A stretch of DNA of 64,000 nt from an uncultured Christensenella sp. (GTDB lineage Bacteria > Bacillota > Clostridia > Christensenellales > CAG-917). Under the pieces are notes generated by a model. The model was not told the origin of the DNA. It was given only the letters and a program-made list of their open reading frames with translations, and ran no database searches. Position numbers and translations under genes: made by a program. The stretch spans positions 192,985-256,984 of the forward strand of contig CAJTNO010000002.1 of assembly GCA_910577815.1 (NCBI GenBank), in the 5' to 3' direction. This document shows positions 9,631 through 63,424 of the stretch, one piece after another (position 1 is the first letter of the stretch; every line of letters starts with the position of its first letter).

Positions 9631-12600
9631 CTTATCGATTATTTCCGCCTCAGCCGACTCGTCGAAGCCGATAAGTCTGTTGGACTCGACCTTGTTGCCG
9701 TCCGCATAAGGAGTTATGCGCAGCATAAAGAAGTCCCAGGCTTCCTCGATATTGGCGGTATGTCCGGTAATGTTGTACTGTCCCATATTGGTATTGGGAG
9801 CCTTGAGGTACTGCATACTGGTGCCTGCGCCGTTCTTTCTGCCGTTTACCATAAGCTCGATAGCTCTGATGCCGGGCGACATATCGGAGCTCGCATTCAA
9901 GCCGTATTCGGACGGACTCGGATTGAGGTCGATATAGATATTGGCGCTCGGGTTAATATCGCCCACTGCGAAGGGCAGAGGCAGAATACCCGCGATAATT
10001 CTCGACAGGTCCTGAATGTTAGGACCGATAATACCCGCCAGCTTCCAGCCGAACAGCGAGGTACCGTCGTCCCAGATGCTGTTTGCGCCGACAACGGGCA
10101 AATCCTTTGCCGCGCCGTATGCGACGTCGCGCAGTATCCACTTGATAAGCGCATACGGAAGCGCACGCATATACGGTTCGAGGAATTTAACCTTTGCCTC
10201 GGTGGTCGCGTTCTTCTTTACGTAGTTGGTATCGAGCTCCTGAAGCACCTCGGTAGCGGTCTTGATAGACAGATACTTTCCGCTCGGGTCGGTACCCGCG
10301 TCGCCGTTACTGTTGTTTATGCCGACGGAAGTAGGATTGATGAAGTAATTCTGCACGCCGCCGCTGCTTGGATGGCTGTTCATCGTACTCATAAGATTGA
10401 GCAGTATGCAGTCAATCATAATCATAAGTTCGTTGAACGCCTGCTTGCCGAACTCTATCTTGATAGAAATGAGTCCCGCATCGCGCTGAATTGCCGACAT
10501 TCCGCTGTAGTAAGGCTGATATCCGTGTCTCGAGCTCAGGTTAAGCTCGAGCTTATTGATAAGTCCCTCGAGATTGGGAGTATACGAATAGGATGAAGTA
10601 CCGTCGCCGTTATCCGTCCAGTTGTCCGTAGTGTCGTATCTGTCGCTCGCGCTCGGATACTTGTAGGAGCCGTCGTCGCCGTCGGTGCCCGTAGCAAGCT
10701 TAAGCGGGAACATATCGGGAGCCATAGAACCCAAATCCAGGAACTTAAGGAAGTCGGATATAGCGCCCTGCGCCGCCTCGGCAAGACCTGTAAGTTTAAC
10801 GGGGATACCGGTTACGAATACGTTGTTTCCGCCTACGATAATCTTAAGCGTATCCATATCCTTGGTATAGCGGCTGTTATTTTCGGGCAGAAGCGCAAGG
10901 AACAGCTTATATCCCTTTCCGCCCGCGCTTGTATCGTCGGGATGCGTGTTGTCAAATCTCTTTTGTCCCGTCAGCGTTATCTTGGAGCGCTGATTGAGAA
11001 CCTGGAAGTATCCGACGTCGCCGTAACCGCTTGCGTTACCGCCGACAACGTTCATAACCTTATTCTGAATTTCTATGCTCGCATTGAGGTCGAGGTTGTC
11101 GAGGATGTTCTGGACAAGCGACATCATACCCGCGGTATTGGACATCGTAAGTCCGGCGTAACCCGTCTTAACCTCCTGAGCTGTGGCTGCGCTGTCGAAT
11201 GCGGCGGTTCCTATTGTAAGCTCAATCGGATTGACCGCAATGGCAATGGACGAGCCGACGCTGTCGAGTATGGATTCGAGTCTCATACCGCTTATTCCGT
11301 TATCGCCGAACATCAGCGACAGCGTCGCGTTTTGAATGTTGGGCAGGTTGAAGCCGAGCTTTACGTTAAGCAGAGCGAGTATAGCGTTGAACAGACCGGT
11401 ATCGAAGGAGAACTCGAGCTTATCGTTTTCAATATTGATATTGAGCGCGATAGGAGTCGCCTCGCTACCCGTCGAAGCGTCGGGAGTGCCGTCGGCATTG
11501 GTTTCGCCGTCCGCCTCGGTGCTTGCGTCGGCAACGGTATTAGCCTCGTCGCCGTCGTAGCCGTACGAGCCGCCGAGTATGCCCGCCACGCCCTGGAACT
11601 TGATTTTGCCGAGTCCGAGGCTTGTAGCGTCGATGTAAATGGCGTCGGACATAATATCGCCGTCCGAGCCTACCTCATAGCTGCCGGTGGTCTGATTGTA
11701 CTTGAGTCTGGACGAACCGAGATAGTAAATACTAATCAGCTTCTTGTTGAGCGGATAGCCCATAGACACGTCTATGGAAATATCGCTGTAGAGTATACCC
11801 GCAAGACCGTAAAGAATTACGGAGCCGAGGTTGATATTGGCTTTGAGGTCGATTACGAGATTTATACTTTCGTTTGCGCTGCCGAAGGTAAAGGATGTAA
11901 GCGCCGACTGGAAGTAATGCGTAGCATTGCGCCAATTAGTCTCCTCGACGTATCTCTTGTTAGCGCTGTCGTACTTGTACATCTTGCCCTGATAGAATTC
12001 TCTGTCCGCAAGCGTCATATTTCCGGAATCGCCGAATTTCTTATAATTGCCGAATGCGTCAACGCCGCTGAGCAGAGAACCGAGCAGCTCGTCGCCAAGC
12101 CACGCCGCAAAGCTGTCGTCATAGCCCGCGTCGCCTCTTGCGAGACCTCTGGAGGTCACCTGAACGGTTATTCCCATATGAGCGCCGACCGTAGGCAGTG
12201 TGAGCGCGTTGATAAGGTCTACCTCCTCTCCGTTGACAATAGCCTCAAGGTCGATAGAGCCGAGCGATACGTATTTGCTCTGGTCGCCGATAATACCCGA
12301 AATAACTCTCTTGCCGTTCTCCACGTCCTTGGTGATTGTGGGCATATCGAGGTCGAGCGTCATATACAACGCGTCGCTGAAGCGCATATTAAGGCTAATC
12401 TTTGTATGGTCGGTAGTCGGGTCGGTGCCGATATGCAGCAGCCAGTCGCCGAGGTCGGGCAGCAGATTTTCAACCTTCTCGCCGCGGATTTGCATAATCT
12501 TCTTATACACTGCGTTGATAAGGTCTGCGTTGAGCTGCAAGAGTACCTCGTGCGGACGGAACAGAAGCATAATGTACTCCCAATCCATCATATTGCTCTC

Positions 12601-15600
12601 GATGATGTCAATCTCATCCTTGGCTGCAGTGCCTGCCTCATCGTTTGCAAGACCGCCGTTGTCAACCGCGCCGATAAGCTTACCGAGCGAGTTTTTAATC
12701 AGAGAGTTTACGTTTACGCCCTCGAGCTTTACCTTTGCGGTTTCGCCGAGGAGACCGCTGAGGTCGACGTAAATGCTGTCGTCAAGCAGATATATGCCGA
12801 ACAGAGTTGAATAGGAATTGCTCTTTGCCGCGTACTTCTGAAGCTTGAGCGAAAGCGCGGCTTCCCAATTCTCAAAGTCGATGACCGCGTTGAGGTCAAG
12901 CTTGAGGAACGCTCCGTCGTCGCGTCCGAGCTCATTGGTGATGTTCACCTTAAAGTCGGAGTTTCCGATGTTTGCGGTAGGAGCAAGAAGCTCTAACAGC
13001 AGGTCGAGCACCTCGCTCATATCTATGGTATTATCCTGACCTGCCGCGCCGCTTCCGTACAGCGAGACGTCTATGCTCATATTGAGATATGCCTTCATAC
13101 TGTGGATTTCGACAAACTTGCTTTCGTCTATCGTATCCTTAACGCCGTCGCCGTCGGTGTCCTCGCCGAATTTCTCCTCCTTGCTTACGGAGAAATCCTT
13201 ATTTATTCTCACATACAAATCGTGCAGACTTGCCGAGAGGCTGAAGTCGCCCATCGCAATGTACAGTCCGTTGCCCGCGGCGTTCTTTACAAACTCGCCT
13301 GTTGCGGGAACGTAATCGAAGGTCTCGCCCTCCCAGGTCGGGTAAGCGTACGCCTTGAGCACGTAGTTGTCGCTGGAGATATAAACGTATGTGTTTGCAT
13401 TGTCCGTGGAGGTTGTCACGCTGTAGGTGCCGTCCTCGTTCTTGGCAAACCTCGTGCCCGACCAATCGGAATAGGTAACGCCGTCGATGCAATACTTGCC
13501 GTTTTTACCGAACATTTCGTTGTATCTCTGAACGGTGATATAGTAATCCTCTCCGACCTTAAAGCCGAAGTTGATGTCCACGCTCGGGGAATTGCCCGAG
13601 AAGTTGATAGTAATTCCGCTCGTATCGCTATCGTTTGTGGTATACAGTTTGGGCAGGAACTCCGCAACGCTGTTGAGAATCTCGCTGTCGGAATTTATAA
13701 GTATCTTCAAGAGGTCTGCAAGCAGGCTCTCGTTAAGTCCGACGGTTATGAAATCGCTGGAGAGAAGCAATCTGCCGAGCAGCACGTTAAGCGTACCCCA
13801 GATACCCTCGGGCAGCATACCCGTATTTACGATGTCGTCGTCAAGCGCCTTATCCGCCGCGGCAATCGCCTCGGCTACAGAGGTTGCGCTCGCGCTTCCG
13901 AGCAGAGGCGCAAGGTCGAAGCCGTCAAGCTTGCCGTAGGAGAAGAAGTTGCCAAAGCCTATCAGCTCGCCTATTTCCGCCATATCGAGATATGCGTCGA
14001 GCTTTCCGCCGTTGATTTCAAACCACAGGCGGCTGGTCGCGGGATTTTTGTGCAGTCCCGTCTGATAGGTAATTTCCACATACGCTTTAATGCCGTCAAG
14101 AACATCCAAGATGTTGATTGTCTTATCGGGGTCGTTATTGGTAAGTATGGCAACTATATTCTGCGTGGGCAGATAAACGTTGATGCTTGCGTTAAGCGAT
14201 ACCTTGCTGTTGGTTTCGGTCTTATTGCCTTCGTTCTCGATATACTCGAGGGAGGCAATCAGGAAGTACAGATATTCGGTTATCGTACTGTCGTCGATAA
14301 ACTTAGTCATCTGATACGCCCAGTTGATGATGTTGCTTACCTTAAGCGTGAGGTCGAGTGTTACGCCGAATTCAACCGACTTGAAGTCGCCGAGCATATC
14401 CGCAATGCTTACGTTTGAAAGCTTGCTCAGGTCAATAGTCATCGCCTTCGTATAGCCCTTGAAATCACCCGAAAGTATATACGCCTTTTCGCCCGCGTAC
14501 TTGTCCGCTTCAACCGCGCTTGTATAACCGTCGCCGTCCTCGTCGATGGGCATATAAGCCGCGCCGTCAACGTTTACCGCGAGGGGATTTGTAAGCTCGC
14601 CCGTTCTTGCAAGTCTGTATTGCAGCTTACCCTTGCCTGTATAGCCGGCAAGCGACCTCTTGTCAACCTTGATATAGTCAAACTCGGGGTCAACCGCATA
14701 AAGCTCGCCGCGGAAGCTTGCAAACGTCTCCGTATTGCAGATGTCGCGGTAGCTTGCGGACTTGAACTTGGTTTCAACCTCGTTTATGGGTTTATATGCG
14801 TCGCCGACCTTTACGTAAAGCATTCCCTTGAACTCGCCCGTATCATAGCGGTTGTCGTGGTCGGAGCCGAACGCAAATCTTGCCTCGGGCAGTATTTCCT
14901 TTGCGGAATAGCCGTCGTGCGAGTAACGCTGAGACGGACCGTTGTACACGTCGTAGCGCGTGCCGTCGTAATCACCCGAAATTAGCTCGAAGCTGCCGTC
15001 GTCAAGTTTCTTATAATTGCCATTTTCGGTTTCGTAGTACTCCACGCCGTCGGCGCTGTTCTTGTAAAGACGGATGATGTTGCCGAGGTCGTAGTTTCTT
15101 GCATACTCGCCCTTGCTGTCAAGGTGGAAGTTTGCGTTGTTGAATATATCGCCGCCGTCGAATTCGCTCTCGGGACCGAATGCGATAGATGACGAGGTTT
15201 CCGTTCCGTTCAAGCCCTCGAACTTAAGACCTACGTCGATAACGGGTCTTGAGCCGTCCTCGTTAAAGAGGAGCGCGCCAACCGTAAGGTCATAAGGATT
15301 AAAGCCGACCTTTACGTATGCTCTGAAGTTGGGCAGAACGTCGGTAATGGAGGACGAATCCGCCATAAGCTCGTTGAGCAGAACCCTGAGGAAGCCCGAG
15401 GTTACGTTTACGGCAATGGCGTTTGTAAAGATATTGAGGTAAGCCGTGGTAACGTCGGGAGACTGTACGTCCTTATCTATTCTGTCGTTGCGCGCAACGG
15501 GAAGCGCCTCGTCGTTATCCATAGAGTTGTTGCCGAGAAGTCCCGCAAGAACGTCCTCTATGGAGTGCTTGGAGAGGTCGACGTAAATCTTTGCGTCCGC

Positions 15601-21600: not shown

Positions 21601-24600
21601 ATCGTAGACATAGGTGCCTTCGTTATCCTGAATATAATTCAGATAATAGCCCTTTAAGTTGCCGTCCTTATCCGCCTTTACGGTCGCATATCTGCGGACA
21701 TATCTTTCGTCGTCCTTAAATTTGACGTTTCCTTTATCGTCGGGAGTCAGCTCGCCGTCGTTTATTGCGCGGAACATTCCGCCCAGCTTGACGTAATTGC
21801 CCGTCTTGGACTTATCAAATACGTAGTATATGCCGCCCTGTTCGAGCTTTTCGGTCTTTACGCGTGCATACGCGTCCTTCATAACCGCCTTGGGAGCGTA
21901 GAAATCAACGCCGTCGGCAGGGGTATACTTGATGGAGTAGCGCTGTTCCGTCGTATTTTCGGGAGCCTCTACGTAATTTCCGGTATTCTTATCGAATATA
22001 TATCCGCCGTTCTTATCGGCAACGTACTCGAAATAGCAGGGCTTTGCGTCCTTCATAACGAGGTTGCTTGCGACAGCATATCTGTCAACGCCGCCGATAG
22101 CCTTCTCCTCTTCCTTGATAAGACGGAATTCGCCGTTGACCTTGATGTAATCTCCGTCAGCCGCCTTTGTAAAGTAGTAGTAATTTCTGCCCTCTACTAT
22201 ATTCTCGACGTCAACCTTTTCGTACACGTCGGAATCCCTGTAGAAGCCGTTTATAATCGGCAGCAGATTTTCGATGTAGAGGTCGAGATTGATAAAGTCG
22301 TATCTGTCGTTCATAGACAGCACGCCTTCAAACGTATCGATGCTCATAAAGTCGAACTCAACGTCCAGACCGAGCATAATGTCAAACATAAAGCTGACGT
22401 TATTACCGTCGCTGCCCGCCGCCTGCTTATTGGCAAGCGCGGCAATCATTTCGAGAGTGAGCATCTCGCGTCCGCCTATATTGTTGGTCGGGCGCAGGAA
22501 CAGACCGGACCGCTCGTCGAGTACGGTAAGGTCGGAGGTCGGGTCGAAGTTAAACAGACTCTTAAGCAGCTCGTTAATCATATCGGGCTTGAAGTAAATG
22601 CCGAGGTAGTCGAGCTTGTTGGAGGAATTATCGCCGGGGAACCAGGGAGTGCCCTTTACGAGTATGCTCTTAACCATAATGTTGAGCACCTCGCCGAGCT
22701 TAGCGAGCAATTCGCTGTTATCGTCGGCTGTAGGCAGAGCCTCCTGCTTGCCGCCCTCGGTATCGTTTGCGCCGAACTTATCGAGCAAATCGAGCAAGCC
22801 TACGCTTAGCTTGGGACCGCCGACCGCTGAAGCGTCGATATACAAATCGCCTTCCACAAGATAGATATTGAGCTTGCGCTGACTGTTTGCACCGTCCTCG
22901 TATGTGAAATCTATGCTTACCGCAAGCTGCAAAGCATTTAGGATAGTTTGAGTATCGAATTTGATATTGTCAAAGCTGAAATCAGGCGAATCGACCTCGC
23001 TGAGCTTAAAGCCGAGAGTCTCGGTATTAAGACGGATTTGCGCGTCGATAAGCACGCCGTCTCTCATTGCGTCGTTAAGCAGAAGGTTAAGCCCTACGTG
23101 CTTGAGAAGCTCTCCGAGCGTAATGGAACCGTTTTCTCCTTTAAAGTGGATGATGGGAAGTCCGTAGGACAGTATACTGTCGAGAGCCTCCATATTGAGG
23201 ATGAGGTCAAGCGTTTCGTCAAACGCGAAGCCGTCGCGCACGTAAATGCCGCGCGGGTCCTGAATAAATCTGCCGTCCGACTTGTTGAGCGAATATCTGT
23301 CCTTAGCGGAATATGTCGCAAGACGGTTGGGGTCGTCTATGCGGATATACGTCGCGCTTGTCTTGTAGTCTAAAAGCAGGCTCACGTCAACCGCGAGAAT
23401 TCCCGCCTCGGGACGCTTGTTGAAATGGTCGCGCGCCACGTACTGCGGCAAACCGGTATGGTCCGCGTTGTCGGGATTGAATTCCACAAACTCGTGGGTT
23501 ACGGGGTCAAGCACGTACAGAACGTCGGTTTCGGACGGATTTTCCGCAAGAATGTAATCCTTCTTTGCAATAGCTTCCTTAAGCTCGTTTGCAACGTGCT
23601 TATAGGTTTCGCCGTCCTTGCCCGTTTCGATATGGAATGAGCCGAGCGTAAGTCCCAGCGAGAGAAGCTTGCTGTCGATGTCTATGGAAAGCTCGAGCTC
23701 GGGCGATACGCTGATGCTCGCATTCACGGACAAGCCGAGGTCAAGCGAGGATATAATCTCGTTGATATCCACGTCGTTATTCGCGTCCGAGCCGGCGGCG
23801 ATAGCCGCAATAAGTCCGAGCAGAACGTTTTGCGTAACAAGCAGACCGACCTTGCCGTCGGCAATGTCAAGCAGAATACGCATCTGCTCCTCGATGCTTG
23901 CAGAATCGGTATCGGCAGTAGCGACAGCCTCGTCGTCGCCGATATGTATCTTTCCTACCAGCTCGGAAATGAGCTTGGTAATGATATTTGCAATTCCTGT
24001 ATTTTCAATATATACAGCTTCCTTGCCGAGTCCGCCGAAATCGATATAAACGGTATTTCCGTCAATATAGATTGCCAGAATATTGGAGTGGTCTATCTCG
24101 TTTGCAAGTCTTAAAACAATCTTTGTTGACGCGGGGTCGGTAAGCGAAATATTTGCGCCTACTGTAAGCACGGGCTTATAGTGAACGGTATCCTTAAAGT
24201 CGATGCCGAGCTTAAGTCCGAGCTGCGGGAAAAGCACGTCGAGGTAATCCTCTATACGGATAGGCGCGTCCTGCTCCTTGATTTTCACGTCAAGCGCGAG
24301 CGACAGGTGCAGCGTAAGGTTGTCGAGGCTGTCGAGCCCCGCATACTTGCCGCTGTCGAAATTCTCCGCGCCGCCGGGAAGCACGCTGTCGTCGGTGCCG
24401 AGCCCGATGCGAATATCGGAGAGCGTCAATCCCATATACAGCGGGTCTACCTGCACCTTGAGCGCAAGCTCGTAGAACCAGTAGAACGCGAAATAGCTCT
24501 CGGTGCTGTTAAGCTTGATGAAATCGTCGGGAGCGATATTCTTGCCCGTAAGCAGATTTACGATAGTAGTTACAAGCGCTTCCGCAAAGTTGACCTTAAT

Positions 24601-27600
24601 TTCGGTATCGTTTACGGTAGCTCTCTTAATAAGATTATTGATATTGCCGAGAAGCACGCTCAAAATTCCCTTTGAGGCTTCTTCCTCGGTAGTATCGCCC
24701 TCGGCGGGAGTATTCTCCGCCCCGTCGTCGGGAGCGGTATTATTTTCACCCTCGGAGGGCTTATTTCCGCCTTGAATTGATTTGATAAGCGACGCGACGT
24801 CGAGATTTGCAAGCGCAAGGTGGAAGTCGTTTTTGATATCGAGATACACCGTGCTTACAGGCACGCCGAACTGCTCGCCCGTGTACAGAAGGTGTACGCC
24901 GAGCAGAGTATGCTTGGTTATGCTGGCCTGGTCGTTGAAATCAACGTCGTCGATTGCTACGTTATAAATTTCGATACCTATATCCGAGTGGGACAGTATA
25001 TAGTCGAAGTCAAACAGACTTGCGGGAATATACAGCTCGTCGTCTACGAAATTGCCTACGGTTTGGGGAGTAAGTATAACCTTTACGTAGTTTTCACCCG
25101 TCTTGAGATAGGCAACGCCCTTATTGGTCTTTTTATCGATAAGCTGATTATAATCCTTAGGAGCCTTTACAAGCGAAATCCCGTCGGGCAAATACTGCTT
25201 GATAAACAGCGTTCCGTCGTAACCCTTTATGCCGTCCTCGTCAAGCTGAATGTAGTTGGTGCCTTCGAGCTTATAAATTTCTCCGTATTTATACTTATTC
25301 TGAGCAATTTCATCCTTACTGATGGGGATGAACACCGTATTTTCTATAAAATCGATAAAGGATTCGGGGTTAAGACGGAGATTAAGCGAAATTCTGAAGC
25401 CGAGATTTGCAACGACCTCCTCGTCGATGTTATAGGAAAGCAGCAGCGAATGCAGGAAGGAATTGAGCGCGGGATTTTCGCCGTCCTCGTAGAACTGAGC
25501 AATCCACTTGCCGAGCGTCCAATCCGAGCTGCCCTGATTTGCGCCGAGGTCGATAGTACCCTTAAGCTCGAGGAAAACGGAGGGAATCTCCATATCGCCG
25601 TTGCCGTTGAACAGCGGAACTTCGATATAACCGTCCTTATCGTCCTTAAGATAGGTAGCCAAATCCTTTTTATTTTCGCCCTCGCCCACGGTAATGCCGT
25701 TGAGCATATTACCGCCTGCGATGATATTGATATCCGCGGCATAAAGCTTCGCGCCTATCAGGGTTTCTTCGTTAGCGTCGTTTATCTCGAAGTTGAGCGA
25801 AATTTGCTCGCCGCTTCTGCTTGCGAGCGTATCCCAGACAACGTCAATCCACGCCGTAACGTCGGTAAGGTCAAAGCCGACAAGCTCGTAGAGAGCCTCG
25901 ACAATGCCCTGCATAATTCTGATTTGCAGCTTTTCCGAGGTGAGAGAAGCCACCACGGACAGGGCAAGCTTTTTCTTTGTAAGCGCCTCCGCCGCGCTGT
26001 CGCCCTCCGCAACCGTCAAAGCCTCCTTGAGGGAGCCGTCGGGATTTATATTTATAGTACTGTCCTTAGCAATAATCTTAAGGAGGATATCAAATATATC
26101 CATCGGCACGCTGAACTTATTGATGCCGAAGTTACTGCCGTCCACGTACAGACGTTTACCCGTATAATACAAGCCGAGAAGCACCTTTTCGGGTTCGCTG
26201 AATTTCTTACCGGTAAGCTCGATAAGCAGCTCGGAGCGACGGTTTTTGGTGTCTACGTTCTCGTCGCCGAGCAGATAGCTCATAACCGACGCAAGGTCAA
26301 GACGTCCGCTCATCTTAAGCTTATACTCAAACGTACCCTTTTGGTCGAAGCCGACCGAAATAGTATCCGAGAAGGCGGGCATAAACTTATCCGCCTCGTC
26401 GTCGAAATAATACAGCAATCCCTTATATCCGGAGGGAACGGGATACTGCTCTATGGATTTATAGGTAATGCCGTCGCCGTCAAGCCAGTGAGTGCCTTTT
26501 CTGCCGAAATCGATGGTAGTGGTGCCCTGCTCGACGCTGAGATTTAATCCGAAAACGCCGTCGAACGACACAAACGGATTTGCAAACAAATCAACGAAAT
26601 CGTCCTTGGAATACTGAGTTTCCAAATCGAGATAATTGGTATTGCTCTCGCCGAGACCGGCTTCGAAGCCGTTAAGACCGATTTCGAAATTGACGTGGTC
26701 GCCTATGCTCATATAGATGCCGAGCTTAAGCTCGGACAGATTGAGACCGTCCACAAGCTCAATCTTGATACCGCCCTCTACGCCCGCGTCGTTTACTATG
26801 ATATCGATGCCGTCGATATCGAGACCGTCGATAAGCGCCTGAAGCAGATTGCTTACGAATGCGATTTCAATGGAATTTTTACCGAGGTTAATACCCTGTA
26901 TCATTCCGCCGATAAGCGCAATAATTCTGTCTGTGGACGTAGCCTGGGTAATATCCTCGTCGGCTGTGCCGTCGGCGGTAGCAAGAGCCTCGTCGTCGGC
27001 AGACAGAGCGTCCATCTCCACGCCCATCATAGACAGACGCTGAAGGTCAATCATAATCTTATCCACGCCTATGCAGAGCATCTGAGCGTTGATATACAGC
27101 TTGCCTTCCTGCAGATATATTGCGAGAACCTCGTTGTTATAGTCTATATTACCGCTCGCGTCCTTGGGCAGTAGCTTGATTTTGGCGGTGGATTTAAGCA
27201 GAGCCGCCTCGTTAAAGCCGCTTGTGAGGTCGATATCTGCCTGAATATCGGCAACAAGACCGCCTCTTATAGAGCCGAGCTTAAAGAGTATATCAAGCAA
27301 GACGTCAAAGGTCGTATCTCCGAGCGCCAAATCCTTAAGATTTACCTGAAGCTGGGCAAGCTCGCCGCTGAGCGCCTCGACGTTGATATCGAGACCTGTC
27401 TGGAGATTTACGTGCAGGATTTCCGCATTGAGAGCGCCGTCCTTGGTAATTGGCAAATAATGCTCGGAGTAAATATTTTCAAACAAATCGGCAAAGCCGC
27501 TCGGGTCGGAGATAGTGCCGAACTTGAGCTTAACGCCCGCGCCGAGCTTGACAAGCGGATTTTGCTCGCTCTTGCCGAGGTCAACCGCTATGGACAGCGA

Positions 27601-29583
27601 CTTATCCTTGCCGAAGCCGAGGTCCTTATAGGTGAGGGTCGCGTTTGTGACAGGCACCTTGCCGCCCTCGAGATCGCCCACGAAAATCAGACCGAAGATA
27701 TAATCGAGGATGTTCTGCGCGATATCCAGATGTATGGTGTTGATATTGAAGATATTGCCGTCCATACCTACGGTAATATTATCGACGATAGCCATAATCA
27801 AGCCCATAGTATCGCCGATTTCGTTGGAGTCGTCCTCCGCCGCGACCATACCCGTGTGCTGCTTGATTATAGCTCCGTTTGCCGCGAGCTTATTGTACTG
27901 CTCCTCGGTGTTGGTGTTGCCGTTTACTGCTTTGATAATGGTATCGAACAGCTTATCCATCAAGCCGTCGAGAAGCTCGTTGACGTTGATATCCTCAACC
28001 TTGAGCTTGGTATTCTTATTGCCGAGCACGCCGCTTGCGTCGATATAAACCGCCTCGTCCCTGCCGGTGTAATAGACGCCGAGGCGCGTAGCGCCCTCGG
28101 AGCCTCTCAGCTCAAGCGCGATACGCGTCTTGGAAGCGTCCTTGGTATTTATTTCCGCGCGGATTTTGACGATAATCGAGTTTTCGGTCTTGTCAAAATT
28201 GAGGTCCATAGCGAAAAGCGGCAGGAGCGCCTTATACGTATCCTCGCCGAGGTTGGTTTTTAAAATATTGGTGAAAAGCGTACCGAAGGAATCCATAACG
28301 TTTGAAATGGAAACGGTCTGCTTTGAAGTGTCGATGCTAAGAGTTACGTCGCCCTCGAAGGTAAGTATGGAATACTTATTCGTGGACTGCGCAATATGGT
28401 CATAGAAGCTGATGTTCTGTTTTTTATCGTAAATTCTGTTTTTGAGTATGCCGACTACGTCGAGCGTAGGAGCGCCGACAAACTTAGCGTCGATATAGCC
28501 GAGCTTGATGCCGACGCTGCTTTGGAAATCGCCGTATCTGTCCTTAACCGCCTCCGACGCGTTGGAGTTGAAGTTTACGTCTATAGACGTATCCACACCG
28601 TCAAGCACACCGTCCTGAATGTCCGCCTGAATGTAGATTGCCATACCGGTAAGCGCGCCGAGCTTACCGAGGTCGAGACCGAGAACCTTATTGACAAGAC
28701 CGATAATGTCCTCGCTGATTAAACCCTGAAGTAAAGGAAGAAGACTTGCGACGAAAGAGAGGTCGCAAGGTATAAGCAGGGTTTGGCTGCCGTTTCCGTT
28801 GTCCTTAATGGAGCTGAACGAACCGCTGAAAAGCAAGGTAACAATCAAATCCTCAACGGTCATATCGAGAATACCGAGGTCGGCGTTTATGATGCTGTCT
28901 ATAAGGTCGCCGATGTTATAGCCGAGAAGCTCGTTAAAGAGGAGGTCGGTGATATTGAGCTGCTTAAACACGCCGTGAAGCTTTTTGGCAAAATTGGCTA
29001 TATCGAGGTTGTCCGTCCAGACTACGTGTACGGATTCGCCCGTCTCGCCCGCCGCGTTTTTAATTCCGCGTACGTCCGCAACAAGCTTGCCCTCGTAAAA
29101 ATAGAAGCCGGCAAGCAGCTCGCCGCCGTCGTTTTTGACAAGATTGTTTATAGCGTCGTTATCCTGAGCGTCCTTAATCTCGGAGGCTCCGAACTGTCTG
29201 AGCTCTACAAGGAACTGGTCCTGCACCTGCGCTTTAGTCGACTGAGGCGCAAGGTTCATAGCCACCGCCACACGCATAACAAAGACGTTTTCGCTGCCGT
29301 CCTTGGCGTAACCCAGAATAAACGAAGTATCCACGTTTATGTATCTGCTGTCGCTTTCCTGCGACACGGCGGCAAACGCGGCGTTCTTAAGCATATTCCA
29401 GGCCAATCTCGAATCTATGGGAGTACCGCCGTTAAGGTCGGGGTTGTCCGGACCGGGCGTCGGTATCGGAGTAGGCTCCGGATTCGGGTTGGCAGTGCCA
29501 GTCGAATTGCACGCGACAAATACCGAGGTCAGGACAACCAACAGTATCAGCAACAGCACGACTGAAATTTTTCTCTTTCTCAT
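2677..29583 (-). CDS. giant (8,968 aa) predicted surface lipoprotein of unknown function: 13 divergent beta-rich modules plus a C-terminal Ig-like array
   Basis: Uninterrupted 26.9-kb frame. The ATG at 29583 is preceded by GGAGGAAGATT. The signal peptide MRKRKISVVLLLILLVVLTSVFVA|C carries a lipobox. The ORF-track start at 29637 lies upstream of the predicted transcription start. All long antisense ORFs are codon-aligned shadows. Confidence 0.9.
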   Translation of the reverse strand: MRKRKISVVLLLILLVVLTSVFVACNSTGTANPNPEPTPIPTPGPDNPDLNGGTPIDSRLAWNMLKNAAFAAVSQESDSRYINVDTSFILGYAKDGSENVFVMRVAVAMNLAPQSTKAQVQDQFLVELRQFGASEIKDAQDNDAINNLVKNDGGELLAGFYFYEGKLVADVRGIKNAAGETGESVHVVWTDNLDIANFAKKLHGVFKQLNITDLLFNELLGYNIGDLIDSIINADLGILDMTVEDLIVTLLFSGSFSSIKDNGNGSQTLLIPCDLSFVASLLPLLQGLISEDIIGLVNKVLGLDLGKLGALTGMAIYIQADIQDGVLDGVDTSIDVNFNSNASEAVKDRYGDFQSSVGIKLGYIDAKFVGAPTLDVVGILKNRIYDKKQNISFYDHIAQSTNKYSILTFEGDVTLSIDTSKQTVSISNVMDSFGTLFTNILKTNLGEDTYKALLPLFAMDLNFDKTENSIIVKIRAEINTKDASKTRIALELRGSEGATRLGVYYTGRDEAVYIDASGVLGNKNTKLKVEDINVNELLDGLMDKLFDTIIKAVNGNTNTEEQYNKLAANGAIIKQHTGMVAAEDDSNEIGDTMGLIMAIVDNITVGMDGNIFNINTIHLDIAQNILDYIFGLIFVGDLEGGKVPVTNATLTYKDLGFGKDKSLSIAVDLGKSEQNPLVKLGAGVKLKFGTISDPSGFADLFENIYSEHYLPITKDGALNAEILHVNLQTGLDINVEALSGELAQLQVNLKDLALGDTTFDVLLDILFKLGSIRGGLVADIQADIDLTSGFNEAALLKSTAKIKLLPKDASGNIDYNNEVLAIYLQEGKLYINAQMLCIGVDKIMIDLQRLSMMGVEMDALSADDEALATADGTADEDITQATSTDRIIALIGGMIQGINLGKNSIEIAFVSNLLQALIDGLDIDGIDIIVNDAGVEGGIKIELVDGLNLSELKLGIYMSIGDHVNFEIGLNGFEAGLGESNTNYLDLETQYSKDDFVDLFANPFVSFDGVFGLNLSVEQGTTTIDFGRKGTHWLDGDGITYKSIEQYPVPSGYKGLLYYFDDEADKFMPAFSDTISVGFDQKGTFEYKLKMSGRLDLASVMSYLLGDENVDTKNRRSELLIELTGKKFSEPEKVLLGLYYTGKRLYVDGSNFGINKFSVPMDIFDILLKIIAKDSTININPDGSLKEALTVAEGDSAAEALTKKKLALSVVASLTSEKLQIRIMQGIVEALYELVGFDLTDVTAWIDVVWDTLASRSGEQISLNFEINDANEETLIGAKLYAADINIIAGGNMLNGITVGEGENKKDLATYLKDDKDGYIEVPLFNGNGDMEIPSVFLELKGTIDLGANQGSSDWTLGKWIAQFYEDGENPALNSFLHSLLLSYNIDEEVVANLGFRISLNLRLNPESFIDFIENTVFIPISKDEIAQNKYKYGEIYKLEGTNYIQLDEDGIKGYDGTLFIKQYLPDGISLVKAPKDYNQLIDKKTNKGVAYLKTGENYVKVILTPQTVGNFVDDELYIPASLFDFDYILSHSDIGIEIYNVAIDDVDFNDQASITKHTLLGVHLLYTGEQFGVPVSTVYLDIKNDFHLALANLDVASLIKSIQGGNKPSEGENNTAPDDGAENTPAEGDTTEEEASKGILSVLLGNINNLIKRATVNDTEIKVNFAEALVTTIVNLLTGKNIAPDDFIKLNSTESYFAFYWFYELALKVQVDPLYMGLTLSDIRIGLGTDDSVLPGGAENFDSGKYAGLDSLDNLTLHLSLALDVKIKEQDAPIRIEDYLDVLFPQLGLKLGIDFKDTVHYKPVLTVGANISLTDPASTKIVLRLANEIDHSNILAIYIDGNTVYIDFGGLGKEAVYIENTGIANIITKLISELVGKIHIGDDEAVATADTDSASIEEQMRILLDIADGKVGLLVTQNVLLGLIAAIAAGSDANNDVDINEIISSLDLGLSVNASISVSPELELSIDIDSKLLSLGLTLGSFHIETGKDGETYKHVANELKEAIAKKDYILAENPSETDVLYVLDPVTHEFVEFNPDNADHTGLPQYVARDHFNKRPEAGILAVDVSLLLDYKTSATYIRIDDPNRLATYSAKDRYSLNKSDGRFIQDPRGIYVRDGFAFDETLDLILNMEALDSILSYGLPIIHFKGENGSITLGELLKHVGLNLLLNDAMRDGVLIDAQIRLNTETLGFKLSEVDSPDFSFDNIKFDTQTILNALQLAVSIDFTYEDGANSQRKLNIYLVEGDLYIDASAVGGPKLSVGLLDLLDKFGANDTEGGKQEALPTADDNSELLAKLGEVLNIMVKSILVKGTPWFPGDNSSNKLDYLGIYFKPDMINELLKSLFNFDPTSDLTVLDERSGLFLRPTNNIGGREMLTLEMIAALANKQAAGSDGNNVSFMFDIMLGLDVEFDFMSIDTFEGVLSMNDRYDFINLDLYIENLLPIINGFYRDSDVYEKVDVENIVEGRNYYYFTKAADGDYIKVNGEFRLIKEEEKAIGGVDRYAVASNLVMKDAKPCYFEYVADKNGGYIFDKNTGNYVEAPENTTEQRYSIKYTPADGVDFYAPKAVMKDAYARVKTEKLEQGGIYYVFDKSKTGNYVKLGGMFRAINDGELTPDDKGNVKFKDDERYVRRYATVKADKDGNLKGYYLNYIQDNEGTYVYDFATGVYVQADASDDGIRFRREEELILKPKAKEDEADVPQAVENIGFYAIQDRPQYYDQNIYLAVGGLVYFNSNGIETYNAGGLVANLLGDMIIELQAQSEFTGGIGINIALNVDLAKLDLLGLAGGKSVGQFILDSDIDEMELAIEFVKVGDDGHFERYRSGAFKVLGGLYLSGGSLYIDATEIVNNAESYARIDNFVSKGRELIDQIGGIVDGITKPNQADEALTATEYDSESQDLEKLSRDAIIALAYSDTAFQIQFTRSLLAFIVATLMPELGSIEEVFDILELSVGVELGEVQYKRVSEIKDPAEKDKWDTEWNDERYNYYTDPSPVHAVELEDYYVAMVNGVSKYYPSYTSLYVKNENGTYDKVTDGYNPDAGITYYVDEAGLKLEVLRVVKAQKADKNYYVVAEGSGATVSLKSYDLYEKVGDDYYKSDMFVYDEAQNDVRYIHYNGSYRKVTALRMRKYGYVKETGGEFYREIINYSALEDFMVAVDLTAGCLSMGLKLGRLDVDLGSGIDLLPDYIRDEVGHTVKLDNGDYEEYSRELYETLTETEKNTVKQVAVNPFTDTIVTIGFSIDLDFGVTEGAIDFGQIVAGILGNIAGVRIEMPTTSKGYSSAHFRLDFSLMLDMGDLSNSELAIELFAVTESGYDAKWAGIYYFGRGVYLDLSDTFNIPKMSMSDIGATDLINSIFDLLGLGKPFVAGSVNNGVSSGEALTAGSANDAVLGADGTTGAVGDADFTNRDLALAILFNKDLLTIALGNKMFHTILELIDTSSLGFNLKDLFYDEINTNLQVKLDTSESIDLEVLIALGLVGGRYNKVADATEQGDSYDEQQIIRDIQSLTNQTKYFAFRPAVEGGQRGYYVKGDDGTYVRVAKPDDIVNGTTYVKYRVLYNEDTKKLYLRPMLDGDGNGKENMGKDEFALNAGEEIYSFTPGASANNSYVGDGGKYDVDLSLKIAICNVNAEFTNSRKYTLSGEELKDYTAFGDMDRITLSETVDLTTSFKTGEDNDIDLSAVISAFIPSLTADNLIKIISQADDGGDVNRKIQAVVTLDLQMMALVNYARTQLVQYSGMDAFEGEMTLFDTIELLQKLIENADALGENASKILTDIISFFDLKLVIQTKGGNEKEFHDIIGIYMMGGTFVIMTDEEKNDKESEKYVDPSERFDHYFENKDGTYYLDKDGKYKPINDTPLAEDDKRYSFDANYCYPNENGGYKRVNGGIAIDLSYFNVPSIYIDSSELDTLVDALLGGLVGGGNGEAMSVAATSADDSEDEDNKITFPLITDDELLGYIRTFVYGFSVTSRYIQLLVQPDFINSILALLLDEDTTIKFDEEKFVNKPALTIYSDMTKHAYVNVKELVERIPDSSDTSVTEEERVKIRKEVVEIMTASHYRFNVTEYTGAGASKRGTYFKAEDGSFELIAVMSASQKSDYDKLVEKGEKSYYDVNSAPVYIRIIDTDASGNVINSFVLYSTASDIQIRRAEKNALALQHYGIDVPVLYILSDTSLDSSDIPTEDGKFYTTVGAEDLYCVEKLDSRYPFITLDLYLWNYQISLGVNFPEFGVEKFNYVNVKELKDKILAGTATEEERNLYEIISQYPDSVRYRDVPQYLYSSEDKESDGTYSWISDYYESGAFSPARYDANPRYYSVKEPVKDEDTGKEKFETKYYPITADTLMIMNAQGTFKPAVTDGVIPNYLEEIANGTKEYYVQTGTSYAKVQRQYMYRRDMYDAGKKVLIAPEDVDKYDDYYVRAMRQGFITRPDFENDEKYENYKYKNYVSIGELFYLSLDLRAHLYVEAGRMFFPYGEYKQLYSQINNLLGENELSDADMLAFIKDNGLGYKIQRGEYVQVKDGAEIESLMAGGHLYVWANSSLSEDYDGVKEQLGQVLSGIFGNMKAVLQLQEGDSLNIYLSVRINLCFDLTISPFKLNVRDLDIAIDAWLQQRDKLAGGGYVSPEDRQNGNYEGELENGSLAHILGIYYDRNAATGSAGLYVDLSWILGADAKIYVDLSKHSIEDVLAGLLGNNSMDNDEALPVARNDRIDKDVQSPDVTTAYLNIFTNAIAVNVTSGFLRVLLNELMADSSSITDVLPNFRAYVKVGFNPYDLTVGALLFNEDGSRPVIDVGLKFEGLNGTETSSSIAFGPESEFDGGDIFNNANFHLDSKGEYARNYDLGNIIRLYKNSADGVEYYETENGNYKKLDDGSFELISGDYDGTRYDVYNGPSQRYSHDGYSAKEILPEARFAFGSDHDNRYDTGEFKGMLYVKVGDAYKPINEVETKFKSASYRDICNTETFASFRGELYAVDPEFDYIKVDKRSLAGYTGKGKLQYRLARTGELTNPLAVNVDGAAYMPIDEDGDGYTSAVEADKYAGEKAYILSGDFKGYTKAMTIDLSKLSNVSIADMLGDFKSVEFGVTLDLTLKVSNIINWAYQMTKFIDDSTITEYLYFLIASLEYIENEGNKTETNSKVSLNASINVYLPTQNIVAILTNNDPDKTINILDVLDGIKAYVEITYQTGLHKNPATSRLWFEINGGKLDAYLDMAEIGELIGFGNFFSYGKLDGFDLAPLLGSASATSVAEAIAAADKALDDDIVNTGMLPEGIWGTLNVLLGRLLLSSDFITVGLNESLLADLLKILINSDSEILNSVAEFLPKLYTTNDSDTSGITINFSGNSPSVDINFGFKVGEDYYITVQRYNEMFGKNGKYCIDGVTYSDWSGTRFAKNEDGTYSVTTSTDNANTYVYISSDNYVLKAYAYPTWEGETFDYVPATGEFVKNAAGNGLYIAMGDFSLSASLHDLYVRINKDFSVSKEEKFGEDTDGDGVKDTIDESKFVEIHSMKAYLNMSIDVSLYGSGAAGQDNTIDMSEVLDLLLELLAPTANIGNSDFKVNITNELGRDDGAFLKLDLNAVIDFENWEAALSLKLQKYAAKSNSYSTLFGIYLLDDSIYVDLSGLLGETAKVKLEGVNVNSLIKNSLGKLIGAVDNGGLANDEAGTAAKDEIDIIESNMMDWEYIMLLFRPHEVLLQLNADLINAVYKKIMQIRGEKVENLLPDLGDWLLHIGTDPTTDHTKISLNMRFSDALYMTLDLDMPTITKDVENGKRVISGIIGDQSKYVSLGSIDLEAIVNGEEVDLINALTLPTVGAHMGITVQVTSRGLARGDAGYDDSFAAWLGDELLGSLLSGVDAFGNYKKFGDSGNMTLADREFYQGKMYKYDSANKRYVEETNWRNATHYFQSALTSFTFGSANESINLVIDLKANINLGSVILYGLAGILYSDISIDVSMGYPLNKKLISIYYLGSSRLKYNQTTGSYEVGSDGDIMSDAIYIDATSLGLGKIKFQGVAGILGGSYGYDGDEANTVADASTEADGETNADGTPDASTGSEATPIALNINIENDKLEFSFDTGLFNAILALLNVKLGFNLPNIQNATLSLMFGDNGISGMRLESILDSVGSSIAIAVNPIELTIGTAAFDSAATAQEVKTGYAGLTMSNTAGMMSLVQNILDNLDLNASIEIQNKVMNVVGGNASGYGDVGYFQVLNQRSKITLTGQKRFDNTHPDDTSAGGKGYKLFLALLPENNSRYTKDMDTLKIIVGGNNVFVTGIPVKLTGLAEAAQGAISDFLKFLDLGSMAPDMFPLKLATGTDGDDGSYKYPSASDRYDTTDNWTDNGDGTSSYSYTPNLEGLINKLELNLSSRHGYQPYYSGMSAIQRDAGLISIKIEFGKQAFNELMIMIDCILLNLMSTMNSHPSSGGVQNYFINPTSVGINNSNGDAGTDPSGKYLSIKTATEVLQELDTNYVKKNATTEAKVKFLEPYMRALPYALIKWILRDVAYGAAKDLPVVGANSIWDDGTSLFGWKLAGIIGPNIQDLSRIIAGILPLPFAVGDINPSANIYIDLNPSPSEYGLNASSDMSPGIRAIELMVNGRKNGAGTSMQYLKAPNTNMGQYNITGHTANIEEAWDFFMLRITPYADGNKVESNRLIGFDESAEAEIIDKNITPPTSITITDPGRRSGTLVGGSNNGKAIEMRDSTFSNPALFPQMADVTFAKGNPYHSYYQTSVYNDARGTQLVWDASTVDYTAAEPGKTKLAGYVYGYALNTVMYAIPVYISDAAAVTRVRSYTRAEGDANTYVQSDITLNINEANNKFNSQLPDLALITFKDTSIGSRVFGTYRTETVDKKEQMAQAVIGTSEKLSASSSYYKIKGVQINSDGGLRVLPAYTAGLVNVKSNRHYTTVTSNWTSGGYPYSIDSEGYVKYYHAESDTYYYVLDTRYLPTGKNFPAGTISWNTDDFSYDWQGGTGDNSSTINVRFTYQWGFAAEATGSINVNAANYKVQSVSGIVRNGEETKLTVTANSDGSYASRLTLDPMKFNADMITSGSKFSLTNYIKSFTKLNGKWTSNSKFNDYTVKWDLSELEKAMEAITDENGQVDYYKGIKVTVTAYVGGDVFKVLNANGGKYGFVGSDYSTDSKYANSGYIAQAVPVEIVVNSYTLREFNNDVVYDPYNAYRLSGDALYPEGSTIAITVRTVDGTKSDRILTVGTDVKVTAPLIRTGSAGKYTYLDAYNNSVYSIKEGDISYNGYSGSYPLYACFEIGTEYTGIQRVYEQIAINEVKPSQQAVNVAHEDTFNPYWFEGEAYESFDVAFGRVKHTMYPDWTTLKYYTTAACTTLANEQNIYAGGTIFAKVKAYVKEGDKNVALAIAKDKDGNIIYDEDGNIVYEAQDIVLRLNVEKQEISSINFFYDEAIGDIYALSSDRQQDLIDSGEIFDVSKYTGAVYAQTHKIGDLGYGIDPINFATNPDAYFRTSERWGNPFESVAVLVNLVKGTWEGARYFVGENGEPAKDEAGQYISNPDGDHKYDSATGKFVKMTAGEMGTSYIAYVRDWTTTPDSYGIKGGFITLDAHIGNATVSFRVRVPNYEFAGVDESWTGTPSIAFAGGTVGGTGENALTFNYNVRKPWTMPENGTFITKEGKEPLDVRINWVDASSPIRDGVDIKTDGDRKYVERQYYFFDDMTIRYPSEGSFTARIYIDGYGENGTFVEVENRTVYDLFGEFRVPNTATVSVDGEAAPITGVPIRWTDWSNPTSDEIAAGKFTRHFKLLFGDDDNKVYEQEFVINNAFTLEETYGFINNAYGSLRYRLTSDIFHLGLPQKSVLAVGDKRIDVDLNWDVVYGLNGFAEKNVRLTITSEYLSASFDVAVTVDDVSISGLSAGNSFTLDPYGRESSFFASGDLVDVSLLNGGTAKIVANYSLSDIYAGSGIKSDAEFYANISRFFGKTYNVRVNYTYPGMEQPVDGGVISVYVVDRTVFYMGEHEYRSIIIDPFIHSDVSHLANDLHIVTRLDYGMTENTFAAYFDWSKLNEMVEKLKKKDPTAGDPLKFMATAIVYAEDANGTHVYADITDDDADNAKYVTVEEYVSYMKALTGNDEFVCDRTVYRRVEQRFNLPVTVLDRNIESSELVLTKAVEELYVEKRFSTTTRTLVGVDSFGERNDGRYLDIVKSNSTGLPTQIVFYNKYSYVGEAGLPTQIRLSFTNGDVSTYFITFDNVPTFDMLEEAKTLRKNVTAHVWNGTPGRKDSFEIMEPFTIEFVIRASALTVYNSDATYTDMSVGDYKYSFAPYGEENGAQNLFNKNNYANEITYYVGGQFISAENWWNEGRTFGETTIYDANWTKRHAMYTVYGGTFREGDVSFGKFYSYNRTNRAYFRYTGAVAYDSDEHTYKDVNGNDLYIFVYVTTQSLSADWDTSGASFGYRGGNVPVKANVSSKVNGFKSTLEVITRVESGKMQSFGFGSSLTANHGKFYDKVNNRFVIDPFANGNAFDRSGSNMYKGTKYTKLVDGVTFVEDNVNGTYKKVGNQYIELTYQELGEYTYFPNYIYITGEGATSSVRVPIEWDMSGVNFSYAGGTFYAYAVINANGEFDYGVEGYTNSLGVQRVRVEVVVSDRTITGMATNSELNGLKGYANATSKTYINAYDYKLPEMPNVLRLYTAGNKAVNFYERGVSNSDADYAGVLSWSYNKFRPTYEGGVIFVTANLTGADGSTQSYDIPFLVDRRYVHHIMSNTSGVSFNAYVNNDGNAFTNTTFTIPANFQVDPNNGNTLSLPSSYNVTFRVQTPTYNASTGDITWSATTTQADSAATLFRHVIVSMPAGLKWNIGSSGITTPDSSYNATIQIRSQQRITVPVTIKSSFAVSGVTLTDLDVSTSGWRDTLPTSYTYNGNKVKIAWYGKADIYRVGSTTAIEATYPVIFTSNNDTVELPTQGIRRVRYRLYAAVSTVVDVNGSLLATTAATSSKTAVDKGQTIPLAQFYISSMVTLTKN
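11575..28086 (-). repeat. protein-level array of 13 divergent modules sharing the motif [LI]x[IL]EL..(loop)..GIYYxGxxLY[IV]DxSxxLG
   Basis: Motif cores were read by hand at ~28021-28086, 27085-27130, 26131-26184, 24835-24910, 24028-24085, 22822-22878, 21055-21105, 19594-19641, 17884-17940 (+18160-18200), 15613-15678, 13960-14025, 12748-12805 and 11600-11745. Confidence 0.7.
29509..29583 (-). other. type II (lipoprotein) signal peptide and lipobox Cys of the giant protein
   Basis: Basic n-region MRKRK, 17-residue hydrophobic core, then FVAC with the Cys25 codon at 29509-29511. It is followed by a Pro-rich tether NPNPEPTPIPTPGPDNPD. Confidence 0.75.
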
Positions 29584-29639
29584 AATCTTCCTCCGAATCT
29601 TCGCACACGCACGTATGCTAAAGATTACTATACGCACAA

Positions 29640-29668
29640 ATTATACAACTCCCCGCCCGCAATGTCAA
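29640..29668 (-). promoter_or_regulatory. canonical sigma-A promoter of the giant gene
   Basis: Minus strand reads TTGACA (29668-29663), 17-nt spacer ttgcgggcggggagttg, TATAAT (29645-29640). Predicted leader is ~50 nt to the ATG at 29583. Confidence 0.65.
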
Positions 29669-29988: not shown

Positions 29989-30017
29989 TTGACATATCGC
30001 TGTTAAAATAGTATAAT
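29989..30017 (+). promoter_or_regulatory. canonical sigma-A promoter giving a leaderless DUF1624 mRNA
   Basis: TTGACA (29989-29994), 17-nt spacer, TATAAT (30012-30017). The ATG at 30025 is only 7 nt downstream and has no SD. Confidence 0.55.
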
Positions 30018-38459: not shown

Positions 38460-38463
38460 TAAA

Positions 38464-63347: not shown

Positions 63348-63424
63348 GGAGGCGTAGCCCAGTTGGTTAGAGCGCCACGTTGACATCGTGGAGGTCACAA
63401 GTTCGAGCCTTGTCGTCTCCACCA
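63348..63424 (+). tRNA. tRNA-Val (anticodon GAC), CCA-encoded
   Basis: Folded by hand. Acceptor GGAGGCG/CGTCTCC (one G-U pair). Anticodon stem CCACG/CGTGG with loop TTGACAT. T-arm ACAAG-TTCGAGC-CTTGT. Discriminator A plus CCA. Confidence 0.9.

Follow-up and report, generated by a model that had tools for sequence, protein, structure and literature searches.

A giant predicted lipoprotein of an uncultured Christensenella species carries thirteen diverged modules that match no known family

A stretch of 64,000 nucleotides from an uncultured Christensenella sp. (assembly GCA_910577815.1, contig CAJTNO010000002.1, positions 192,985 to 256,984; hereafter the window) was analyzed because an original prediction, made from the sequence alone, had described 13 copies of an unassigned beta-rich module between positions 11575 and 28086. 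This range was found to lie wholly within one minus-strand open reading frame (ORF) of 8,986 codons (window 2677-29637), the translation of which contains no internal stop, and the ORF list and translation place both ends of the gene beyond it. While the mechanical ORF opens with a GTG at 29637, the true start is the ATG 18 codons downstream (Met19 of the mechanical ORF). The giant gene (2677-29583, minus strand) accordingly runs from the ATG at 29583-29581 to the stop at 2679-2677, and its product has 8,968 amino acids (aa). All aa positions given below are counted along the mechanical ORF.

The signals expected in front of a gene were found on the same strand. A Shine-Dalgarno sequence, GGAGGAAG, was read at 29587-29594, 3 nt before the ATG, and a putative sigma-70-type promoter, TTGACA-17-TATAAT, was recognized at 29640-29668 by its consensus match alone (12/12). 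The in-frame residues RRKIM, the counterpart of the Shine-Dalgarno region, are conserved in the orthologs of the giant gene; a conserved in-frame peptide upstream of the ATG was considered and rejected, as this stretch is merely the Shine-Dalgarno region with the leader. The 440-bp intergenic region holds a second 12/12 sigma-70 match on the plus strand (29989-30017), facing away from the first, which would serve the divergent HGSNAT/Acyl_transf_3 acyltransferase gene at 30025-30924.

The product begins with a predicted lipoprotein signal peptide, MRKRKISVVLLLILLVVLTSVFVAC (29509-29583, minus strand), in which the lipobox Cys is residue 43 of the ORF; NSTG follows directly. Checked by eye against the pattern [LVI][ASTVI][GAS]C or a looser PROSITE-type pattern, the lipobox was recognized in MRKRKISVVLLLILLVVLTSVFVAC of the window and as L-V-A-C in the orthologs, and its Cys is invariant both in an alignment of fragments and in an alignment of 17 orthologous sequences. 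A tether rich in Pro, Thr, and Asn (NSTGTANPNPEPTPIPTPGPDNPDLNGGTP...) follows the lipobox Cys (29413-29508, minus strand). Inspection of the translation revealed neither a transmembrane segment nor an LPXTG motif at the C-terminus, and the N-terminal lipid is the only anchor predicted for the giant protein.

Using the loose regular expression G[IV]Y..(L)Y[IV]D, the core hairpin of the module was located at aa 520, 839, 1155, 1580, 1855, 2257, 2848, 3335, 3815 (split), 4656, and 5614, spanning window 28080 down to 12763, and profiles added split or weak copies near aa 5226 and 5975. A hidden Markov model (HMM) built from ten 115-aa segments detects the split and weak copies, with 50 shuffles of the protein scoring at most 1.1 bits. 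When the seed copies were left out in turn, nine of the ten were recovered at 9-30 bits, compared with at most 2.9 bits in 50 whole-protein shuffles. An iterated profile of ~305 match states gave 14 matches that tile aa 113-6197 at 28-152 bits (shuffle maximum, 9.5). Since this profile was trained on the same sequences, a stricter leave-one-position-out test was run, in which a profile made from all other positions of the window protein and three orthologs was scored on the left-out window module and on 100 shuffles of that module. Modules 2 to 14 reached 17-55 bits and the shuffles at most 9.0, while the N-terminal module 1 scored only 0.5 bits. Therefore, 13 copies are supported.

All modules lie on the minus strand; the scores that follow are those of the strict test unless stated otherwise. 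The series opens with module 2 (27382-28314, aa 442-752, 35.6 bits; core GVYYTGRDEAVYID at aa 520) and module 3 (26443-27387, aa 751-1065, 40.0 bits; core AIYLQEGKLYIN at aa 839), the pair used for structure modeling. Next come module 4 (25615-26367, aa 1091-1341, 40.8 bits), module 5, the core of which carries an inserted loop (24346-25110, aa 1510-1764, 23.3 bits), module 6 (23494-24336, aa 1768-2048, 38.9 bits), module 7 (22186-23124, aa 2172-2484, 40.8 bits), module 8 (20479-21351, aa 2763-3053, 22.6 bits), and module 9 (18934-19809, aa 3277-3568, 41.8 bits). In module 10 (17242-18453, aa 3729-4132, 17.1 bits) the hairpin is split by an 86-aa insert into GIYMMGGTFVIM at 18160-18195 and SIYIDSSELD... 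at 17845-17901. Module 11 (14998-15939, aa 4567-4880, 29.6 bits) is followed by module 12 with its degenerate core ...KLDAYLDMAE... (13354-13992, aa 5216-5428), which scores 28 bits with the full profile and 17.2 bits in the strict test against a shuffle maximum of 9.0. Module 13 (12226-13005, aa 5545-5804) has the highest strict score, 55.3 bits, and is matched directly by module 2 of a protein fragment from another species (P0003; BLASTP E=8e-6 over 187 aa). The array ends with module 14 (11047-11877, aa 5921-6197, 29.4 bits), again with a split hairpin, LISIYYLGSS...DAIYIDATSLG. The N-terminal domain M1 (28345-29301, aa 113-431; FLVELRQ...LLAGFYFYEGKLVADVRG), which lies outside the flagged range and scores 64 bits with the full profile and 0.5 bits in the strict test, keeps its position in relatives and may be a degenerate fourteenth module.

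Much of what the original prediction said of the array itself is confirmed by these data: the hairpins, including the split one of its copy 9, are where it had placed them, the count of 13 agrees with the strict test, and similarity extends beyond the short motif over ~300 profile positions with scores far above those of shuffles. Two of its measurements needed correction. The split hairpin is real but its insert had been given as ~75 aa, and the spacing between cores, correctly set at 275 aa at the lower end, reaches 841 aa rather than ~750 at the upper end.

The copies are very diverged, because a BLASTP comparison of the giant protein with itself gave zero internal matches, leaving the repeats visible to profiles only, and because DNA repeat finders returned only matches of 30-40 nt, at the YIDA codons of the cores. 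Pairwise identity between copies is 13-21% in the module alignment. The window protein carries inserts between modules at aa 1341-1510, 2484-2763, 3053-3277, 3568-3729, 4132-4567, and 4880-5216. A Tyr-rich hairpin-like motif, Y[YFV]x[DNK][DEN][DN]G[TNS]Y..[VL] (e.g., YYVKGDDGTYVRV and YYETENGNYKKL), was noted in the C-terminal tails of modules and in lineage-specific inserts (aa 2484-5216, window ~14500-22200), with 10 matches, where shuffles gave 2.8 ± 1.7. The motif is similar to repeats that bind the cell wall or glucan but had no match in the Pfam scan.

The unit of homology spans ~250-320 aa, and the short motif is its core hairpin. Within a module, pre-core strands are followed by the [LI]x[IL]EL strand, the G[IL]Y[YL] strand, the LY[IV]D strand, a KxKxE strand, and a helix (LIxxL); in the extended alignment, this helix is followed by an acidic segment with the motif [DE]EAL[TS]AAD, a strand-helix element, and further strands. 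The acidic motif occurs once per module, ~45 aa after the core, for example at window 27870-27833 and 26994-26956 (aa 590-602 and 882-894). Its A139 (82%) is among the best-conserved positions of the module together with Y91, Y98, and D100 (~85% each), and its A142, A143, and D144 also belong to the most conserved ones.

A structure of modules 2 and 3 (aa 442-1065, 624 residues) was predicted with AlphaFold2 (AF2) from a 42-row alignment of two-module segments, all rows being exact substrings of their source proteins with both cores and the loop motif in register. Disjoint, "even-first" module pairs were used because orthology pulled overlapping pairs out of register in a staircase. The depth of the alignment was 20-41 rows over most of the target and 9 in the last 25 residues; an earlier 10-row alignment had given a predicted local distance difference test (pLDDT) value of 41.5 and was discarded. 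The final model has a mean pLDDT of 76.4 and a predicted template modeling score (pTM) of 0.68, with 443 of the 624 residues at or above a pLDDT of 70. Each of its units is built from ~12-13 strands and 4-5 helices, with loops of 4-5 residues between the core strands. The acidic EALTAAD segments fall on two stretches of low confidence, target residues 147-162 and 439-451.

Coevolution was analyzed by mean-field direct coupling analysis (DCA) of 266 non-redundant module sequences (effective number ~215). The signal is noisy but coherent in its strongest long-range couplings. Many of the top pairs at the gappy profile positions 250-300 are probably artifacts, so that only the coherent pattern of the core was used. 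Antiparallel pairings follow one another at 52-70, 73-89, 88-101, and 95-117/98-112 and describe a five-strand antiparallel meander around the core motif. The helix-strand-helix behind the acidic segment is tied to this core by the couplings 99-161, 118-163, 95-172, 103-179, and 101-188, and helices lie over one face of the meander. As these couplings join its two flanks, the acidic segment belongs to a single compact domain as a loop and does not link separate domains. The module is accordingly modeled as a compact alpha/beta domain in which a meander centered on [LI]x[IL]EL, G[IL]Y[YL], and LY[IV]D leads into a helix; beyond it, the model predicts the acidic [DE]EAL[TS]AAD loop, a helix-strand-helix packing back onto the meander, and further strands. 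The strand-hairpin core that had been proposed thus reappears both in the short AF2 strands with their tight loops and in the antiparallel pairings. The label "beta-rich" is only partly right, since the domain is alpha/beta. A beta-solenoid or beta-helix, one of the two architectures suggested at the outset, would consist of parallel coils of ~18-30 aa without regular helices and is not supported, as the unit measures ~300 aa, includes 4-5 helices, and has its meanders antiparallel.

The module matches no entry of Pfam, NCBIfam, the Protein Data Bank (PDB), or BFVD, in line with its having been called unassigned. An hmmscan of the whole giant protein against Pfam-A at E≤0.1 found no family, and the only line returned by NCBIfam has 13.6 bits against a cut-off of 37. 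When each of the 14 modules was searched against Pfam at E≤10, only three unrelated single-member matches and nothing consistent appeared. The PDB was also searched by sequence, using profiles of the module and of C-terminal orthologs as well as the C-terminal sequence itself, and gave no match; literature searches found no description of the module family.

The AF2 model was also compared with known structures using Foldseek. Nothing was found in BFVD, and there was no credible neighbor in the PDB, the best query-normalized template modeling score (TM-score) being 0.14. Chains of TamB, VPS13, or ATG2, beta-helices, and adhesin stalk domains are all absent from the 50 listed matches, and the long alignments have target-normalized TM-scores of at most 0.28, root-mean-square deviations above 14 Å, and probabilities mostly below 0.5. 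These weak matches are enriched in curved sheets of the hot-dog, LolB, LmcA, AttH, and BFA1 types, the only recurring theme among them, and the list also holds hot-dog dehydratases and thioesterases, LptDE, MlaA, and Osh/ORP proteins. The best target-normalized TM-scores are 0.28 for LolB (9tpm), 0.15-0.19 for polyketide synthase dehydratases, LmcA, and AttH, and 0.18 for BFA1. Double hot-dog and AttH/BFA1 units resemble the module in size (~250-320 aa), but the order of strands and helices in the hot-dog, LolB, LmcA, and AttH folds differs from that of the module. Membership in the hot-dog, LolA/LolB, or AttH/BFA1 folds was rejected, since the TM-scores remain far below the usual ~0.5.

Relatives were largely missed by word-indexed homology search: a 1,300-aa query returned three fragments and the 17-sequence alignment five, all of them N-terminal, one of which sits on a syntenic contig. 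GTDB species genomes were then scanned with patterns. Those made from a single sequence found nothing, and those derived from alignments identified 24 loci in uncultured gut Clostridia, with 36-62% identity over the first 1,300 aa. The genomes are labeled Christensenella sp. UBA..., Firmicutes bacterium CAG:475 or CAG:238, Clostridiales UMGS..., and similar, and several come, by their record titles, from gut-derived collections of metagenome-assembled genomes. In most loci, the ORF is uninterrupted for more than 4,600 aa and reaches the end of the stretch, and the rest lie on shorter contigs or stretches. The lipobox is identical in all of them, and an HMM of the window modules alone finds the same module series in 22 of 22 scanned loci.

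A HMMER search of 1.84 billion representative proteins, for which the profile was built from the 14 window modules only, carried out the database search proposed with the original prediction and retrieved 106 proteins at E≤1e-3, among them 63 at E≤1e-10. The top matches are proteins of 7,000-7,900 aa with 12-14 matched stretches; the full-length relatives examined are all predicted lipoproteins and range from 2,600 to 7,900 aa, and nearly every N-terminally complete relative of at least 2,500 aa opens with a lipoprotein-type signal peptide and Cys. The family is unnamed in the sources looked up; names were sought for 10 clusters of relatives, and none was found in any source. Judged from these matches, the module has a narrow distribution among giant lipoproteins, and the nearest of these lipoproteins belong to gut Clostridia. 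The only accessory domains recognized in distant relatives are of Ig-like or surface type (CarboxypepD_reg, Big_4, and Flg_new), and one such relative adjoins a Big_2/Big_3 protein. One distant relative, P0128 (29412-37327 in L029 and 28619-36534 in L030), is directly followed by another giant gene (at least 4,000 aa), which starts with a signal or transmembrane segment and lacks the module.

In the closer subfamily, the modules map one to one and in order on M1-M14 of the window at only 25-50% identity, and they are nearly contiguous, whereas the window protein has extra inserts between them. The array is thus ancient and each of its positions was retained, because this mapping and a colinear C-terminal region persist in such diverged relatives. 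By this sequence comparison, the array arose by ancient duplication with every position kept since. The same mapping and the empty self-comparison bear out the view that the copies are old and selected rather than recent DNA duplications. To our knowledge, one-to-one retention of ~14 highly diverged paralogous domains is unusual for repeat proteins, and M1-M14 offer a natural dataset for the evolution of domain arrays. In a syntenic contig with a giant protein 65% identical to that of the window (L001, 10001-23483), the gene is called as two products of 1,160 and 8,183 aa; the break near aa 1,145 probably stems from a frameshift or from faulty assembly.

The C-terminal region without known domain (2680-11046, minus strand; aa 6198-8986, 2,789 aa) exceeds the module array in its content of Thr, Ser, Tyr, and Trp. 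It is colinear with that of relatives at 26-38% identity, with a length that varies from 1,900 to 2,800 aa among the relatives and the window protein. Block profiles from an alignment of nine orthologs reveal weak repeats of ~110-150 aa with a best score of 19 bits, most clearly at aa 8358-8477, 8519-8624, and 8682-8755 and less so at 6918-7056 and ~7530-7590. These repeats (aa 6900-8760, window ~2900-9000) bear a W-D-x-S...GG signature, e.g., IEWDMSGVNFSYAGG and ADWDTSGASFGYRGG, the resemblance of which to the strand pattern of bacterial Ig-like domains is a lead rather than a result.

The giant gene is surrounded by ordinary chromosomal genes, which encode IspDF, a cupin-HTH regulator, an HGSNAT/Acyl_transf_3 membrane acyltransferase, a bPH_2 protein, a GH127-like protein, a phosphoglycerate mutase, an esterase, a condensation-domain protein, and Mfd. 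Neither in the window nor in the related loci is a secretion or enzyme partner dedicated to the giant gene conserved beside it. An HGSNAT_cat/Acyl_transf_3/OpgC-like acyltransferase lies upstream on the opposite strand in the window (30025-30924, plus strand) and in three related loci (L001, L027, and L028), the giant proteins of which are 27-65% identical; this proximity may reflect synteny alone or a functional connection, for example in the acylation of a surface glycan.

On a slight balance of probability, we read the giant lipoprotein as a lipid-anchored surface fiber in which a stalk of new domains carries the beta-rich distal region. The protein would be exported by Sec and lipidated at Cys43, which would anchor it on the outer side of the cytoplasmic membrane. 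From there, the module array may form a long, fairly rigid stalk of tens of nanometers that crosses the wall and displays the C-terminal region at the cell surface, where it could bind to the host, the diet, or other cells. A tandem array of homologous domains, by which fibrillar adhesins are recognized, is present with 13 supported modules, from which the extended stalk is inferred.

Several observations weigh against this fiber. Pfam, NCBIfam, and PDB sequence searches recognized no adhesive or binding domain in the 2,789 C-terminal aa. With a pTM of 0.68, the model is only suggestive as to whether the array is a rod or beads on a string. A stalk leaves the EALTAAD loop, acidic and conserved (A139 at 82%), unexplained. 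Finally, the weak lean of the structural matches to lipid-binding curved-sheet folds would, if real, point to another function.

The principle of the architecture, an anchored giant protein with a tandem-domain array, is known, and it is the module domain that is new to the libraries searched. Gram-positive fibrillar adhesins such as SasG/Aap, Ebh, and Embp combine a stalk of tandem domains with a distal binding region. The giant lipoprotein shares with them its giant size, a single cell-proximal anchor, tandem homologous domains, and a distinct far end, and Ig-like domains (CarboxypepD_reg, Big_4) are present in its relatives. In contrast, its stalk unit is an alpha/beta domain of ~300 aa that matches no known stalk domain, its anchor is an N-terminal lipobox instead of a C-terminal LPXTG, and it is without a known adhesive domain. 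Many known adhesin stalks use near-identical repeats, whereas identity between the modules is only ~15-20%. Giant proteins of mammalian-gut Clostridia have been described and read as surface-binding; they exceed 10,000 aa and contain RCC1, Listeria-Bacteroides repeat, YG repeat, dockerin, and LRR domains, and the RCC1-type giants were described without transmembrane anchor regions (West-Roberts et al., 2023, bioRxiv 10.1101/2023.11.21.568195). The present family has very large size and an origin in gut Clostridia in common with them but differs in having no known domain in its array and in carrying a lipobox.

More tentatively, and with less than even confidence, the module may be a new fold, the 13-14 copies of which form a new class of lipid-anchored, wall-spanning fiber of this gut-Clostridia clade. 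The EALTAAD loops would then be functional sites that act in binding of cations, wall polymers, or partners, or in modification, instead of being passive linkers. If true, such a fiber would be a surface organelle without a described counterpart.

The gene has traits that look more housekeeping-like than those of a fast-evolving adhesin, in that it is single-copy and syntenic across species and has long retained all module positions. A protein that scaffolds or spaces the envelope instead of serving as an adhesin, acting as a structural ruler or cell-cell tether in or along the wall with acidic loops that bind cations or wall polymers, would agree with this, with the perfect consensus promoter match, with 13 regularly spaced acidic loops, and with the membrane acyltransferase close upstream in the window and three related loci. 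This support is wholly indirect, however. The acyltransferase may reflect synteny alone, and the lineage-specific inserts and the variable length of the C-terminal region suggest diversifying pressure. We consider a scaffold function unlikely.

The loop itself raises the question of a polyprotein or precursor, in which the regularly spaced, apparently flexible [DE]EAL[TS]AAD segments are sites of processing or modification and ~13 units build a surface layer. That the motif ranks among the most conserved positions, recurs once per module, and falls exactly into the two low-confidence segments of the AF2 model would fit such sites. However, a cut at the loop would fall inside a domain, because the coevolution signal (99-161, 118-163, 95-172, 103-179) joins the segments on both of its flanks. 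In addition, no protease or modification enzyme is conserved beside the gene, and we know of no processing site that the motif matches. We consider a precursor quite improbable.

A bridge-like conduit for lipids, lipoproteins, or other hydrophobic cargo, leading from the membrane to an outer layer through a continuous groove of the AsmA/TamB/VPS13 kind or through a chain of lipid pockets, corresponds to the second architecture of the original prediction, a repeating beta-groove. The giant lipoprotein is like these proteins in being very long, N-terminally membrane-anchored, and repetitive, with antiparallel meanders followed by a helix and a loop; the five-strand meander, helix, and long loop superficially resemble the repeating-beta-groove unit, and several lipid-handling folds occur among the weak structural matches. 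No similarity to AsmA-like proteins, TamB, or VPS13 was seen in sequence, profile, or the 50 listed structural matches, though. AsmA, AsmA_2, and TamB (DUF490) are absent from the Pfam results of both the protein and the single modules at E≤10, and an hhalign comparison of the module profile with E. coli K-12 TamB gave a probability of 0.05% (E=0.79 over 14 columns). A continuous open groove (beta-taco) has no counterpart among the 50 listed matches (best query-normalized TM-score, 0.14), and the post-loop helices that coevolution couples to the meander would occlude it. Instead of the N-terminal transmembrane helix of TamB, the protein begins with a lipoprotein signal peptide and lipobox Cys, and most Clostridia are not known to possess an outer membrane to which such a conduit could lead. 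We regard a conduit as very improbable, and the groove that had been suggested is not supported by these comparisons; the two-module prediction proposed as a check yielded an alpha/beta model without a credible Foldseek neighbor.

That the ORF is an artifact (an assembly chimera, a pseudogene, or chance recurrence of a motif), for which one could cite the related contig with the gene in two pieces, is effectively refuted by uninterrupted orthologous ORFs in 22 independent genomes and many metagenome assemblies, and a 27-kb ORF without a stop and with a putative promoter, a Shine-Dalgarno sequence, and a signal peptide, as well as profile scores far above shuffles, speak against it too.

If our assignment of the giant lipoprotein to a surface fiber is true, the catalog would gain a new domain family, perhaps also a new fold, and a conserved single-copy gene of ~27 kb would be a hallmark surface component of poorly known, mostly uncultured gut Clostridia. 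That ~1% of a small genome is devoted to one protein, behind a putative promoter that matches the consensus perfectly, suggests that this protein is important in interaction with the gut.

Further features of the window lie beyond the giant gene. A gene for a PapA-like condensation-domain protein (37167-38513, minus strand) adjoins one for an alpha/beta-hydrolase esterase (36121-37035, minus strand); the pair is kept in L001, and the condensation-domain gene is also found in L027. GC skew is ~0 across the giant gene (2-30 kb) and ~-0.1 throughout 30-64 kb, where most long ORFs likewise lie on the minus strand, and the giant gene has a negative AT skew. With Rfam, a tRNA-Val (GAC) at 63348-63424 on the plus strand was the only RNA gene detected in the window.

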